From the UHGV virus genome UHGV-0136520: 28,383 nt of DNA. One strand, given 5' to 3'. The translations under genes were made by a program, and so were the position numbers. Positions 12,181-14,231 of this stretch are shown piece after piece. Below the pieces are notes generated by a model. The model was not told the DNA's origin. It did no database searches and saw only the letters and a list, made by a program, of their open reading frames with translations. This DNA is from a virus. The first letter of the stretch is position 1; each line of letters opens with the position of its first letter.

Positions 12181-12196
12181 GAAGTATGGAGACCGT

Positions 12197-13012
12197 ATGA
12201 ATCTGGACAATGTTTTAAAGTTTTTTGCGCCTAAAGGCATGCACATATCAGATACCAGCAGAGCGACAGCCAGTGAACAACTGACGGTTACTGATGTAAT
12301 GGCTGCACTGGGGATGACTCAAGCCGATGCTGGGATCGGGCTGGCAATGTTTTTAGGTAAAGCTGGTATCAGCAGTCAGGACAGGGAGGCGTCAATAGCT
12401 TGGCTAACGGAGTACGCGAAAGAGCATGCGCCCACGGCCATTCGCAAAGCATCAGGGAAAAAGTTTCCCCTCTGCATGTGTATCCTTGCCCGGTTTGCCT
12501 ATAACGATTATTCCTCATCAGCAGCTGATAGCGTGGCATGCCCAAAATGTAGTGGTAAAGGGTTACTTACAACCACGAAAACCGTGACTAAAAGCCATTA
12601 CACGATGCGATTGCCGCAATGGGCTAAAGACCTGAGACAGTCACCATCTGACTTTGAGGTAAAGCGTGATGTAACTGACACTGATCAAACGTTATGCTCC
12701 CGCTGCCATGGCACCGGAAAGTTAAGTAAGCGATGCCAGTGCGGCGGCACAGGTAAGACGATTGACCGTAAAGCGACAGAACTGCAGGGTGTGCCAGTTT
12801 ATAAAGAATGTAAGCGCTGCGAAGGGCGGGGATACAGCCGGCCAAAATCATCGGTTGCCTATCGAGGTATTTTTTCTGAGTTGCCGAGTTTGCCTGACCG
12901 AACGTGGCGTTATAGCTGGAAACCATTCTATGAAAGCCTGGTGACCAAATGCTTCCAGGAAGAGAGTTATTCAAACTCTCAATTGAACCGGGTGACAAAA
13001 GTGAAGATGTGA
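12197..13012 (+). CDS. Putative late-gene regulator (Q-like antiterminator by position) with four CxxCxGxG zinc-finger repeats, 271 aa
   Basis: Last gene before the late promoter/lysis cassette. Four DnaJ-type repeats: CPKCSGKG, CSRCHGTGK, CQCGGTGK, CKRCEGRG. ATG 12197 with GGAG 5 nt upstream. The functional call rests on position. Confidence 0.45.
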   Translation: MNLDNVLKFFAPKGMHISDTSRATASEQLTVTDVMAALGMTQADAGIGLAMFLGKAGISSQDREASIAWLTEYAKEHAPTAIRKASGKKFPLCMCILARFAYNDYSSSAADSVACPKCSGKGLLTTTKTVTKSHYTMRLPQWAKDLRQSPSDFEVKRDVTDTDQTLCSRCHGTGKLSKRCQCGGTGKTIDRKATELQGVPVYKECKRCEGRGYSRPKSSVAYRGIFSELPSLPDRTWRYSWKPFYESLVTKCFQEESYSNSQLNRVTKVKM

Positions 13013-13042
13013 TAAATATCGCGTGATTTAGCGTCATGATGT

Positions 13043-13097
13043 TTGCAATGTTGCCGTTTTTGTGTATATTTGACATTAACGATGGGCATTGTATGTT
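13043..13097 (+). promoter_or_regulatory. Candidate late promoter(s) (PR'-like)
   Basis: TTGCAA (13043-13048), 16-nt spacer, TATATT (13065-13070) preceded by TG. Overlapping second candidate TTGACA (13070-13075), 16-nt spacer, TATGTT (13092-13097). Read by eye only. Confidence 0.3.
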
Positions 13098-13107
13098 CAG
13101 AGTTAAG

Positions 13108-13131
13108 AAACCCGCCACCGAGCGGGTTTTT
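13108..13131 (+). terminator. Intrinsic terminator hairpin just downstream of the candidate late promoter
   Basis: AAACCCGC, loop CACCGA, GCGGGTTT followed by TTGCTTTCC. Confidence 0.45.
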
Positions 13132-13228
13132 GCTTTCCGGCGATACGACAGGGAAATTCGCGAGATGTATTGCGTTAGTTCCCCTATCACATCGTCGATC
13201 TGCAAACATCCACCAAAAGAAAACAAGG

Positions 13229-13252
13229 CCTCGCTACCAAGCGGGGTTTTTT
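13229..13252 (+). terminator. Strong intrinsic terminator (tR'-like) before the lysis genes
   Basis: 7-bp stem CCTCGCT/AGCGGGG with ACCA loop followed by TTTTTT. About 175 nt downstream of the candidate late promoter, comparable to the lambda 6S RNA arrangement. Confidence 0.6.
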
Positions 13253-13432
13253 CATATTCAGGGCTCGCTGACGGACGGCTCATAACCCAATCCGACAGGC
13301 GCTTGCGCAGAGCCCGCCACCTTTCAGGCTCACGGGAATCACTTACTACGTGCTTTGTTGATAAATCCAGCCCGTGAAGCCTGACCCTTTCATCACACAC
13401 ACAGCGCCATCCGAAAAATCGGAGGTGAGGCT

Positions 13433-13711
13433 ATGACCAGAATGAGCACCATTTACAGCAGACTTTCATATGGATCAGGAACCACGCTTGCCGGCTGCGG
13501 TGTATCAGCGAAGGCATATGCCGAAACAGCTAAAACAGCAAAAGAGGTGTCCTGGATGTTGGCCGACAGAATTGCAGGGTTAAGCCTGAGCGACTGGGCA
13601 ATTATTGTCGGTATCGCATGCACCGTTATTACCTGTGCAGTGAACTGGTATTTCCGCTGGAAAGAACGGGAGGATCGTCGCAATGGCTATGCCACCAAAG
13701 CTGAAGAATAA
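13433..13711 (+). CDS. Holin (two-TMD class, possibly pinholin-type) with dual-start motif, 92 aa
   Basis: SD GGAGGTGAGG precedes ATG 13433. N-terminus MTRM gives two Met starts separated by Arg (antiholin/holin dual start). Hydrophobic TMD WAIIVGIACTVITCAVNWYF and charged C-terminus. Overlaps the endolysin start. Confidence 0.6.
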   Translation: MTRMSTIYSRLSYGSGTTLAGCGVSAKAYAETAKTAKEVSWMLADRIAGLSLSDWAIIVGIACTVITCAVNWYFRWKEREDRRNGYATKAEE

Positions 13712-14231
13712 ACTGAGCGCAGCGGTCGTTGGTTTGATTCTTGCGGGGGCTTCTGCACCTGTGATTCTCGATCAGTTTCTTAATGAGAAAGAGGGTAATA
13801 GCCTTACGGCATACCGCGACGGTGGCGGACTCTGGACCATTTGCCGTGGCGCCACGATGGTTGATGGTAAGCCAGTAGTTCAGGGCATGAAGATGTCTTC
13901 TGAGAAATGCGCCCGGGTGAACGCCATAGAACGCGATAAGGCGCTGGTGTGGGTTGAGAGAAATATCAAGGTACCACTGACCGAACCACAGAAAGCCGGG
14001 ATTGCTTCTTTTTGCCCATATAACATCGGCCCGGGAAAATGTTTCCCGTCCACGTTCTATAAGCGAATTAATGCTGGTGACCGTATTGGCGCGTGTGAAG
14101 CGATCCGCTGGTGGATTAAAGACGGTGGCCGCGACTGTCGTCTGACCAAAGGCCAGAAAAACGGCTGCTATGGGCAAGTAGAACGGCGAGACCAGGAAAG
14201 CGCGCTGACGTGCTGGGGGATAGACCAGTGA
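13683..14231 (+). CDS. SAR endolysin (phage lysozyme with N-terminal signal-anchor-release domain), 182 aa
   Basis: N-terminal Gly/Ala-rich hydrophobic SAR segment [19 protein letters not shown], then lysozyme catalytic region ([10 protein letters not shown]...GLWTICRG) resembling phage 21 / P1 Lyz-type enzymes. Confidence 0.8.

Follow-up and report, generated by a model that had tools for sequence, protein, structure and literature searches.

The question raised by this locus is whether the 271-aa gene between DUF968 and a lysis cassette encodes a Q-type late antiterminator, and whether the DNA behind it forms the matching late-gene switch. The locus lies in the window, by which we mean the whole 28,383-nt stretch of the virus genome UHGV-0136520 that was analysed. 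By Pfam assignment, Ant/KilAC and DUF968 genes precede Q, and holin and lysozyme genes follow it. The original prediction had placed at the Q position a protein with four DnaJ-type repeats, unlike lambda Q, followed by two overlapping promoter candidates and two hairpin terminators.

12197–13012, plus strand: Q gene, lambda-family late antiterminator in its long (phi80-like) form, 271 aa (PF03589, PHROG 127 and lambda Q matches)
12197–12376, plus strand: codons 1–60, homologous to the N-terminal segment of lambda Q that forms the RNA-exit-channel nozzle (aligned to lambda Q residues 1–60)

The gene at the Q position was confirmed as an open reading frame extending from an ATG at 12197 to a stop codon at 13010–13012, with a GGAG ribosome-binding site at 12188–12191. 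A profile search against the antiterminator Q families, as had been proposed, revealed a match of its product to PF03589 (156.8 bits, E 1.6e-46; cut-off 26.7), which is the Q-lambda family (bioRxiv 10.1101/2022.03.25.485794), and a full-length match to PHROG 127 (E 5.8e-94). With phmmer, lambda Q (7UBM_Q) was matched at E 1.8e-43 in two collinear blocks, residues 1–112 corresponding to lambda Q 1–114 and residues 179–268 to lambda Q 117–207. The AF2 model of the protein (pLDDT 82.6) displays the fold of Q-lambda proteins, namely a four-helix body with a helix-turn-helix and a zinc-ribbon arm. In a Foldseek comparison of this model with the PDB, the best match was 7UBN_Q (E 1.6e-13, TM relative to the target 0.78), and all eight significant matches were Q-lambda structures. 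In addition, an "antitermination protein" of Salmonella enterica shares 95% identity with it. The claim that it is unlike lambda Q is thus contradicted by profile score, phmmer match and TM value alike. Judged from sequence and predicted fold, the 271-aa protein is a member of the lambda-Q antiterminator family in its long, phi80-like form, and by homology its function would be antitermination.

Two other Q families were considered and rejected. Q21 (PF06530) and Q82 (PF06323) occupy the same genome position and follow the same regulatory logic, in which a sigma-dependent pause close to the promoter precedes a terminator (PMC9388147). Neither family appeared among the Pfam matches to the protein at E <0.01; the membership in PF03589 and the alignment with lambda Q assign it to the Q-lambda family, and Q21 and Q82 are functional analogues only.

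The resemblance to lambda Q (PDB 4MO1, 7UBJ–7UBN) and P22 gp23, both PF03589 proteins, comprises a collinear nozzle segment, four-helix body and zinc-ribbon arm. The N-terminal segment of lambda Q refolds with NusA into a nozzle on the RNA exit channel, and its residues V6 and G39 are required for antitermination (PMC9388147). Alignment showed that the equivalents of V6, G39, L202 and T206 are kept in the protein under study, and that L, A and I stand in place of C53, H56 and L58, three lambda residues implicated in antitermination. All the positions conserved in the family (63 homologues) are retained. The last 4 residues are read in a frame different from that of the closest homologues, which have 276 aa; this change lies past the end point of lambda Q. 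Other open reading frames that overlap the intergenic region or run antisense to Q (13036–13377 and 13043–13285 on the plus strand, 12624–13400 and 12979–13209 on the minus strand) gave no PHROG match.

12533–12730, plus strand: insertion relative to lambda Q, residues 113–178, with two extra cysteine motifs (gap when aligned with lambda and P22 Q by phmmer and MAFFT)
12734–12832, plus strand: homologue of the zinc-ribbon arm, CQCGGTG and CKRCEGRG (alignments to lambda Q)

Analysis of the cysteine motifs upheld three of the four repeats as canonical CxxCxGxG: CPKCSGKG (residues 115–122, nt 12539–12562), CSRCHGTG (residues 167–174, nt 12695–12718) and, on the C-terminal side, CKRCEGRG (residues 205–212, nt 12809–12832). 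The remaining one, third in order, is a variant with CxC spacing (CxCxGxG): CQCGGTG (residues 180–186, nt 12734–12754). Across the 63 homologues, the cysteines and glycines of the motifs either never vary or are conserved to 90% or more, which sets the motifs far from chance. Residues C180, C182, C205 and C208, the putative zinc ligands, align with C118, C121, C144 and C147, the zinc-binding cysteines of the lambda Q arm. In contrast with the lambda and P22 proteins, which have 207 aa, one zinc site and two CxxCxGxG motifs and do not share the CxC spacing of the third motif, the protein described here contains 66 inserted residues that bring in two further motifs, CPKCSGKG and CSRCHGTG. DSSP strands at residues 123–135 and 154–166 of the model suggest that this insertion is a long beta-hairpin, predicted to emerge where the Q body meets the arm.

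The long form with the insertion is found in about half of the phage homologues, and the CxC spacing is common to every long form examined, phi80 included. The phi80 protein (gp17, JX871397 PHI80_57) has 269 aa in comparison with the 271 aa observed here, and carries the insertion at the equal place with the same four motifs, the third being CxC; the two proteins, however, are just 38% identical. Two short relatives (P0114 and P0115) have motifs B and D only, which does not fit a simple A+B / C+D pairing. Most likely the insertion provides a second zinc site and makes the DNA-binding arm longer or stiffer.

The same cysteine motifs are what could speak for a zinc-finger protein that is not an antiterminator, such as a DnaJ-like chaperone. 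Four CxxCxGxG knuckles are also repeated in the DnaJ/Hsp40 cysteine-rich domain, and the profile of this central domain (PF00684) reached 32.8 bits on the protein for a cut-off of 32.7. Weak matches to TIGR02349 and to anti-TRAP were obtained as well, and two Xenorhabdus homologues bear the name "molecular chaperone". The PF00684 score, however, is at the border of noise, and the DnaJ equivalog TIGR02349 gave 27.2 bits where 377 are required. The J domain, the G/F region and the C-terminal substrate-binding domain are all absent; the DnaJ-type match is confined to residues 167–214, whereas the whole protein is collinear with lambda Q, which itself has two CxxCxGxG motifs. The gaps between motifs (44, 5 and 18 residues) are very unlike those of DnaJ, where the motifs pair in a nested manner (1+4 and 2+3), and no DnaJ structure was present among the Foldseek matches of the model. 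Domain architecture and scores effectively refute a DnaJ-type chaperone, and the probability that the gene encodes such a chaperone or another zinc-finger protein in place of an antiterminator is negligible.

13042–13070, plus strand: predicted late promoter pR', −35 TTTGCA at 13042–13047 and −10 TATATT at 13065–13070 (scan and alignment with lambda, P22 and phi80 pR')
13070–13099, plus strand: predicted sigma-dependent pause module with the initial transcribed region (homology to lambda and P22, clade conservation)

The two promoter candidates of the original prediction were both recovered by a consensus scan: TTTGCA/TTGCAA-17/16-TATATT (13042–13070) and TTGACA-16-TATGTT (13070–13097). Over 4 kb the scan found 4 sites for 3.8 expected; since such candidates occur at chance frequency, they acquire meaning only from comparison with relatives. 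In a column-by-column alignment the promoter region matched pR' of lambda, P22 and phi80, and for lambda and P22 the correspondence includes TTGAC(T/A) and AACGAT-GG. The spacer GTTGCCGTTTTTGTG (13050–13064) is located at the position of the Q-binding element of lambda and phi80 and differs in sequence from the Q sites of both phages (TCGCGGA in phi80 vs GTTGCCG here). The spacer GTTGCCG(T/C)TTTTGTG, AACGAT-GGG and a terminator some 30–55 nt downstream are retained across about 30 loci that have a Q of 77% identity or more. From this alignment, the first candidate is identified as the homologue of pR'.

The pause module is composed of a −35-like TTGACA (13070–13075), a −10-like AACGAT (13078–13083) and GGG (13084–13086), followed by a conserved pause-region block, CATTGTATGTTCA (13087–13099), which contains TATGTT. 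Lambda and P22 have TTGACT-C-AACGAT-GG(G/A) in the same place, the gap between the −35-like and −10-like elements being 2 bp here vs 1 bp in lambda. AACGAT-GGG is retained in nearly all clade members, one of which has AACAAT. In phi80, on the other hand, the element is AACGCT and there is no TTGACA-like element. The P22 record sets the RNA 5′ end at the first A of AACGAT; a transcript start near 13077–13078 and a pause near 13093–13094 would be expected here.

The second candidate admits a different interpretation, that of two working tandem promoters, with TTGACA-16-TATGTT acting as an independent sigma70 promoter that starts near 13104. It is the top consensus match of the region (10/12); the clade preserves TATGTT, and most members also carry a correctly spaced TTGAC(A/G). 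The two hexamers, however, are not conserved together in relatives: TATGTT occurs without a −35 in the Kp4866-6-type loci (L005, L286, L288 and L291) and in L296–L302, and an E. coli relative (L004) keeps TTGACA with TATAAC instead of TATGTT. Moreover, TTGACA occupies the position of lambda TTGACT, the −35-like element bound by sigma region 4 in the Q-loading complex (PMC9388147). The start of such a promoter would also lie just before the first terminator and downstream of the Q-loading site, and an RNA from about 13104 would skip Q loading and stop at that terminator. We therefore rejected it as an independent unit and consider tandem promoters with such a start unlikely. Both sites of the original prediction exist, and the second is best explained, from these sequence comparisons, as a pause module plus a conserved pause-region block.

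13106–13136, plus strand: first intrinsic terminator t1, tR'-like (RNAfold, related loci, phi80 and P22 annotation)
13227–13252, plus strand: second intrinsic terminator t2 (scan, RNAfold, phi80 parallel)
13433–13711, plus strand: holin, first late gene downstream of Q (PF16080/PF04971, PHROG 20)
13683–14231: lysozyme gene, after the holin (PF00959)

Both hairpin terminators are real. In t1, a GC core of just 5 bp (13111–13115/13122–13126) lies within an extended stem (13106–13131) with a T-run at 13127–13131, and RNAfold gives −14.5 to −16 kcal/mol (z = −2.6). A consensus terminator scan listed t2 alone and not t1. A t1-like hairpin with T-run is found at an equal distance in dozens of related loci, and the phi80 and P22 annotations have a terminator at its position. 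P22, phi80 and this locus have their first terminator at about +30 to +59, whereas tR' of lambda is at +194. The stem of t2 (13227–13248) is followed by a T-run (13247–13252) about 175 nt from the probable start, with an energy of −15.1 kcal/mol (z = −3.8); the second annotated terminator of phi80 also precedes the holin. In phi80, too, Q is followed by pR' with a spacer Q site, then by a −10-like pause element, a pair of terminators and the holin. The gene occupies the position typical of Q-lambda members, between nin-type early genes and a lysis cassette, and has pR', a sigma-dependent pause element and a terminator behind it. The predicted Q-type layout, in which a short RNA would end before the holin, agrees with the protein family, the predicted fold and the pR' DNA homology.

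Altogether, we estimate at about 90% the probability that this is a late switch in which a long-form, lambda-family Q loads at pR' and lets the polymerase pass t1 and t2. All its steps are drawn by analogy with lambda Q (PMC9388147). RNA polymerase would initiate at pR' (−10 TATATT, 13065–13070) and pause about 16 nt downstream of the start, where sigma70 would re-bind the −10-like AACGAT-GGG on the non-template strand. Q would bind the spacer DNA between −35 and −10 through its helix-turn-helix body and zinc-ribbon arm, and move sigma region 4 onto the −35-like TTGACA. Once docked on the polymerase, its N-terminal 60 residues would form with NusA a nozzle on the RNA exit channel, and the modified polymerase would pass t1 (13106–13136) and t2 (13227–13252) into the holin, lysozyme and late genes. 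Without Q, transcription would stop at t1 and give an RNA of about 55–60 nt. The points against this scheme are the replacement of C53/H56/L58, the different spacer, the 2-bp gap, the 5-bp core of t1 and its absence from the terminator scan, the frame change and the short relatives that have motifs B and D only.

Some of these features could also belong to an inactive remnant of a defective prophage, whose Q, pR' and tR' lookalikes no longer work. The altered frame of the C-terminal 4 residues with respect to the 276-aa homologues, an intergenic region pieced together from three or more blocks of differing origin, and the degenerate copy of an RNA element described below are consistent with decay. 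Nevertheless, the Q frame is intact with every conserved family position kept, and the frame change falls past the end of lambda Q. Many relatives share the promoter, pause element and terminator with few or no differences, and an intact lysis cassette follows. A remnant is accordingly quite improbable, and a working Q switch is the reading that we retain.

13132–13197, plus strand: degenerate copy of a structured RNA element, about 65 nt (related copies in IMG/VR, folding)

Analysis of the region between the terminators revealed a structured RNA element that is present here and absent between the terminators of phi80. It begins with GCUUUCC as a single-stranded lead, and the hairpin that follows has three parts, with the arms of P1 at 13138–13144 and 13191–13197. 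The element was found in more than 120 IMG/VR prophage contigs, after the first late terminator and directly behind its U-tract, in prophages of Klebsiella, Citrobacter, Enterobacter, Raoultella, Pectobacterium and relatives. In a scan of genome contigs with a 17-base pattern, 79 of 99 matches were due to chance and 20 were true. In the alignment, 97.3% of the cells are paired; the two lower stems and the internal loop UUCGCGA are nearly invariant, and the apical stem covaries (P3). The copy in the window looks decayed, with a folding energy of −21.8 kcal/mol vs −35.7 for the consensus; one example of a consensus copy is that of Klebsiella phage ST11-VIM1phi8.1 (MK448233, 16093–16166).

At least three Q families are found upstream of the element (Q-lambda long form, Q82-type PF06323 and PHROG 753), and its occurrence is independent of the upstream Q family or late promoter; it is a separate mosaic module and not Q-specific. 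A reading on the minus strand, as the 3′ end of a leftward moron, is disfavoured by the G.U pairs and by the plus strand having the more stable fold in 43 of 55 copies. An antiterminator RNA like HK022 put is unlikely too: put RNA is V-shaped with two stems and lies ahead of the terminators that it suppresses (PMC9378689), and blastn detected no similarity to HK022. Rfam gave no gathering-level match in the whole window, and up to E 5–10 nothing covering the element, either in the window copy or in a consensus-like copy. An Rfam identity for the short RNA or hairpin was discarded, the matches being noise and a sub-threshold isrJ (29 bits vs 37) at 13183–13250; in locus L009, isrJ and STnc100 matches adjoin the element without covering it.

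We tentatively propose, at somewhat short of even odds, that the element at 13132–13197 represents an undescribed class of structured RNA in lambdoid late-operon leaders. Its distribution, the near-invariant stems and loop and the covarying apical stem suggest a sequence-specific partner, which could be a protein of the host or the phage, a ribonuclease or RNA polymerase. The element might, for instance, serve as a processing site or 5′ stabiliser of the read-through late mRNA.

These results settle the annotation of the gene as a prophage late switch and mark where late transcription would start and stop. The switch itself is already known and ordinary; it adds little to the biology because phi80 Q, with the same architecture, has been studied and near-identical proteins are already annotated. 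Two features reach further. The long-form Q arm, with its probable second zinc site, is a form with no solved structure, and the extra zinc module may alter how the arm reads DNA. The RNA element after the first late terminator may be a new observation: it is nameless, yet common in prophages of clinically important Enterobacterales.

The original prediction had held the 271-aa protein at the Q position to be unlike lambda Q and to call for a profile search against the antiterminator families. This search placed it instead in the Q-lambda family (PF03589, as defined by Yin et al., bioRxiv 10.1101/2022.03.25.485794), rather than in an unrelated one, and the protein showed each defining feature of the family that was tested. 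The PF03589 profile scored 156.8 bits (Pfam cut-off 26.7), PHROG 127 ("anti-termination protein Q-like") gave a full-length match with an E value of 5.8e-94, and phmmer of PDB sequences retrieved lambda Q (7UBM/7UBN, 4MO1, 7UBJ-L; E 1.8e-43). The AlphaFold2 model, built from 63 homologues (mean pLDDT 82.6), had significant Foldseek matches in the PDB exclusively to Q-lambda structures, the best being 7UBN_Q (E 1.6e-13, TM 0.78), and DnaJ structures were absent from these matches. The window Q belongs to neither the Q21 nor the Q82 family. A DnaJ identity was also rejected, the DnaJ-type signals being marginal (PF00684, 32.8 bits vs 32.7; DnaJ equivalog, 27 bits vs 377).

The reading frame itself proved to be real, with an ATG start and an upstream GGAG. 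Three of the four CxxCxGxG repeats described earlier were canonical, and one was a variant:

12197-13012, + strand: Q open reading frame, ATG start, GGAG at 12188-12191, 271 aa
Residues 115-122: canonical motif CPKCSGKG
Residues 167-174: canonical motif CSRCHGTG
Residues 180-186: variant motif CQCGGTG, with CxC spacing
Residues 205-212: canonical motif CKRCEGRG

These motifs are not due to chance, since aligning 63 homologues showed their Cys and Gly residues to be either invariant or conserved at 90% or more. Six-frame translation gave a single isolated further match, CTPCTGNG, at about 27999 (+), far from Q. Findings of this kind are already known; near-identical proteins carried the annotation beforehand, among them a 95% identical "antitermination protein" of Salmonella enterica. 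Many further relatives were found in Citrobacter, Escherichia, Atlantibacter, Cronobacter, Yersinia, Photorhabdus and Xenorhabdus, all with PF03589 and PF00684, and a few database relatives carry the wrong name "molecular chaperone". An E. coli "phage endolysin" (P0034, 320 aa, PF00182 plus PF03589) was 96% identical to half of the window Q, and in an E. coli relative (L004:5710-5899) a second "antitermination protein" gene directly followed the lysis cassette; these could represent a gene fusion or an extra Q copy.

The match to lambda Q fell into two collinear blocks (query 1-112 with lambda 1-114; query 179-268 with lambda 117-207), and therefore the departure from lambda Q in the aligned sequences is a 66-residue insertion, residues 113-178. 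It is located exactly at the junction between the "body" of lambda Q and its zinc-ribbon "arm" (residues 114-152; PMC9388147), and was modelled by AlphaFold2 as a long beta-hairpin with strands 123-135 and 154-166. The two motifs of lambda Q, CRDCHGTG and CGRCKGVG, aligned with the third and fourth motifs of the window Q, the first and second being supplied by the insertion. The long form has a precedent in phi80 Q (gp17, 269 aa), the nearest studied relative in architecture, which has in common the insertion and four motifs (CDCCDGGG, CKPCNGKG, CRCHGKG and CDRCGGRG, in order), the third likewise with CxC spacing. When the long form was scored as at least 80% query coverage in one tblastn piece, 132 of 250 matching records in the phage collection qualified, and the match was split in two in Lambda, P22, HK022 and HK620. 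Two homologues of 222-227 aa (P0114 and P0115) kept the second and fourth motifs, lacked the others and retained a cysteine-free remnant of the third, which bears on which motifs share each of the two presumed zinc ions in the long form. The last four codons of Q (KVKM-stop, 12998-13012) differed in frame from the nearest homologues, of 276 aa, which end in KSEDVINIA. The window does encode KSEDVINIA in another of its frames, and a difference of one base near codon 268 is thus likely behind the altered residues, which fall past the C-terminus of lambda Q.

Downstream of Q, two overlapping sigma70-like promoters had been proposed. Both sequences are present, TTTGCA/TTGCAA-17/16-TATATT (13042-13070) and TTGACA-16-TATGTT (13070-13097), and promoter-like matches occurred in the region at chance frequency (observed 4, expected 3.8 ± 2.0). 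We therefore read the promoter and pause region by alignment with lambda, P22 and phi80, which gave the following elements:

-35 element: TTTGCA (lambda counterpart TTGACT)
17-bp spacer: GTTGCCGTTTTTGTG plus flanking bases
-10 element: TATATT (lambda counterpart TAAATT)
After the -10: TTGACA, TT, AACGAT-GGG

In lambda and phi80 the Q-binding element lies within the matching spacer, and TTGACT-C-AACGAT-GG(G/A) occupies the equivalent position in lambda and P22. The lambda AACGAT serves as the -10-like sigma-dependent pause element, and sigma region 4 in the Q-loading complex sits on TTGACT, the -35-like element (PMC9388147). The RNA 5′ end in the P22 record is the first A of AACGAT, and the start in the window is inferred to lie near 13077-13078. 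Within 80 fetched loci encoding relatives of the window Q, those with a Q at least 77% identical conserved the spacer GTTGCCG(T/C)TTTTGTG, the -10 element and the block CATTGTATGTTCA; AACGAT-GGG was present in nearly all of them, with AACAAT in one. An independent second promoter at TTGACA-16-TATGTT is quite improbable, as its two hexamers are not kept together: TATGTT was kept without TTGAC in L286, L288, L291, L296-L302 and Kp4866-6, and the E. coli relative retained TTGACA with TATAAC in place of TATGTT. The second "promoter" is thus best read as a chance juxtaposition of two functional pieces.

The two hairpin terminators predicted ahead of the holin both folded well (t1, 13106-13136, -14.5 to -16 kcal/mol, z = -2.6; t2, 13227-13252, -15.1 kcal/mol, z = -3.8). 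A consensus terminator scan reported t2 only; t1 seemingly satisfies its criteria (5-bp GC stem, 6-nt loop, T-run), yet was unlisted. The case for t1 rests on its conservation in relatives, a hairpin and T-run being found about 30-55 nt past the inferred start in nearly all loci with a Q at least 77% identical. For a layout with two terminators there is a precedent in the phi80 record, where two in the rightward direction are annotated between pR' and holin; the P22 record annotates one. The RNA would be about 55-60 nt long if ended at t1 and about 175 nt at t2. Short pR' RNAs are documented for lambda, 21, phi80, 82 and P22, and the equivalent RNA of Stx phages is a working Hfq-binding sRNA (PMC7547250). 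Open reading frames overlapping the Q-holin region on both strands matched no phage protein family.

The comparisons thus show the family, the fold, conserved motifs and homologous, conserved cis-elements, in agreement with the proposed Q-type antitermination layout, and from these we infer the start site, the pause, Q binding, zinc content and read-through. Q would bind the pR' spacer DNA and engage the sigma-paused complex, its N-terminal 60 residues would build with NusA a nozzle on the RNA exit channel, and the modified polymerase would then ignore t1 and t2. For this lambda Q mechanism, we put our confidence that its parts are correctly identified at about 90%. Complete identity with lambda is countered by the insertion, the replacement of lambda Q residues C53, H56 and L58, a different spacer sequence, a gap of 2 bp (1 bp in lambda) between the -35-like and -10-like elements and the one-base frame difference from the 276-aa homologues in the last four residues.

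The Q-holin interval is mosaic. Nucleotide identity to the nearest E. coli prophages breaks off at 13094, about the pause site; 13106-13206 is 83-90% identical to unrelated Pectobacterium, Citrobacter and Klebsiella phages, and the last 110 nt (13322-13432) match sequence that precedes the lysis genes of HK225, mEp237 and Louie. A sub-threshold isrJ match (13183-13250; 29.2 bits vs gathering score 37, E 0.0018) ends at t2; this stretch, which lies after the RNA element, is similar to the 3′ portion and terminator of a pR' short RNA from a different phage, and may be a recombination remnant.

The interval also contains a structured element between the terminators:

13132-13197, + strand: RNA element, about 65 nt, sharply bounded; degenerate window copy, directly after t1

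Its consensus is UUGCUUUCC-GGCGAUACGACAGGGGUAUUCGCGAGAUGCAUUGCAUCAGUACCCCUGUCAYAUCGYCG, with consensus-type copies at, e.g., L009:2497-2574 and L008:2501-2591, and Rfam 15 gave no match. By pattern scanning, copies were located in over 120 IMG/VR contigs, with at least 76 distinct variants, and in 20 species-representative genomes; where a title was shown it was of Enterobacterales, apart from one 1.6-kb MAG contig under the label Mucilaginibacter. It was rare in E. coli (5 of 5426 complete genomes) and occurred in 2 of the 80 loci with window-Q relatives, only the two nearest. Among the matches listed, it always started within the U-tract of the first terminator following the late promoter, downstream of at least four unrelated types of promoter and short-RNA sequence. 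The upstream genes fell into at least three different Q-like families. Of 86 contexts, 68 had a gene for an approximately 200-aa PHROG 753 "Q-like" protein without a Pfam match, 7 one for a Q82-type PF06323 protein and 3 one for a lambda-Q long form.

In the Klebsiella phage ST11-VIM1phi8.1 (L009, MK448233) the element is flanked by matches to isrJ (57 bits, pR' short RNA) and STnc100 (85 bits), at 2428-2506 and 2588-2780, the same late leader then containing tRNA-Asn. There, isrJ, an "Hfq binding RNA", coincides with the short transcript lying between a Q82-type Q gene and its first terminator, and from this match IsrJ looks like a pR' short RNA. The PHROG 753-label family occupies the Q position (L006:1314-1949, L007:1759-2364, L008:1764-2369), after DUF968/YdfU and before the lysis genes, and matched solely PHROG 753, with no Pfam or NCBIfam match. 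Downstream of it, a promoter of the form TTGAAA-17-TAGATAAT is conserved, together with a short RNA, some 75 nt long, that ends at a terminator, and the family could possibly be a fourth, uncharacterised antiterminator family.

The proposed three-part hairpin was 97.3% paired in 55 distinct copies (slid controls, 29-53%), and none of 500 shuffles reached its covariation score. Double compensatory changes were concentrated in the apical stem (pair 38-48: AU in 28 copies, GC in 15, GU in 9 and UA in 1), which some copies had swapped whole for a UACG tetraloop hairpin; RNAalifold alone recovered the two lower stems and nothing more. Both lower stems, like the internal loop UUCGCGA, were almost invariant in sequence; because the first search pattern specified some of the 5′ arm and so biased that side, a second scan took the loop and the apical stem as its anchor, and very little variation was found there too. 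The G.U pairs and the lower folding energy of the plus strand (in 43 of the 55 copies; Wilcoxon p = 7e-8, with non-independent sequences) point to this strand, the one of the late transcript. The window copy, with two middle-stem mismatches and three apical-stem wobble pairs (-21.8 vs -35.7 kcal/mol for the consensus), may be decaying. As guesses at the role of the element, it might be a processing site, might act as a 5′ stabiliser of the late mRNA made by read-through or might bind a conserved protein. We tentatively suggest, at somewhat under even odds, that the hairpin between the terminators is a member of an undescribed RNA class in late-operon leaders; a lesser possibility is that the second zinc module of the long-form Q alters DNA recognition.
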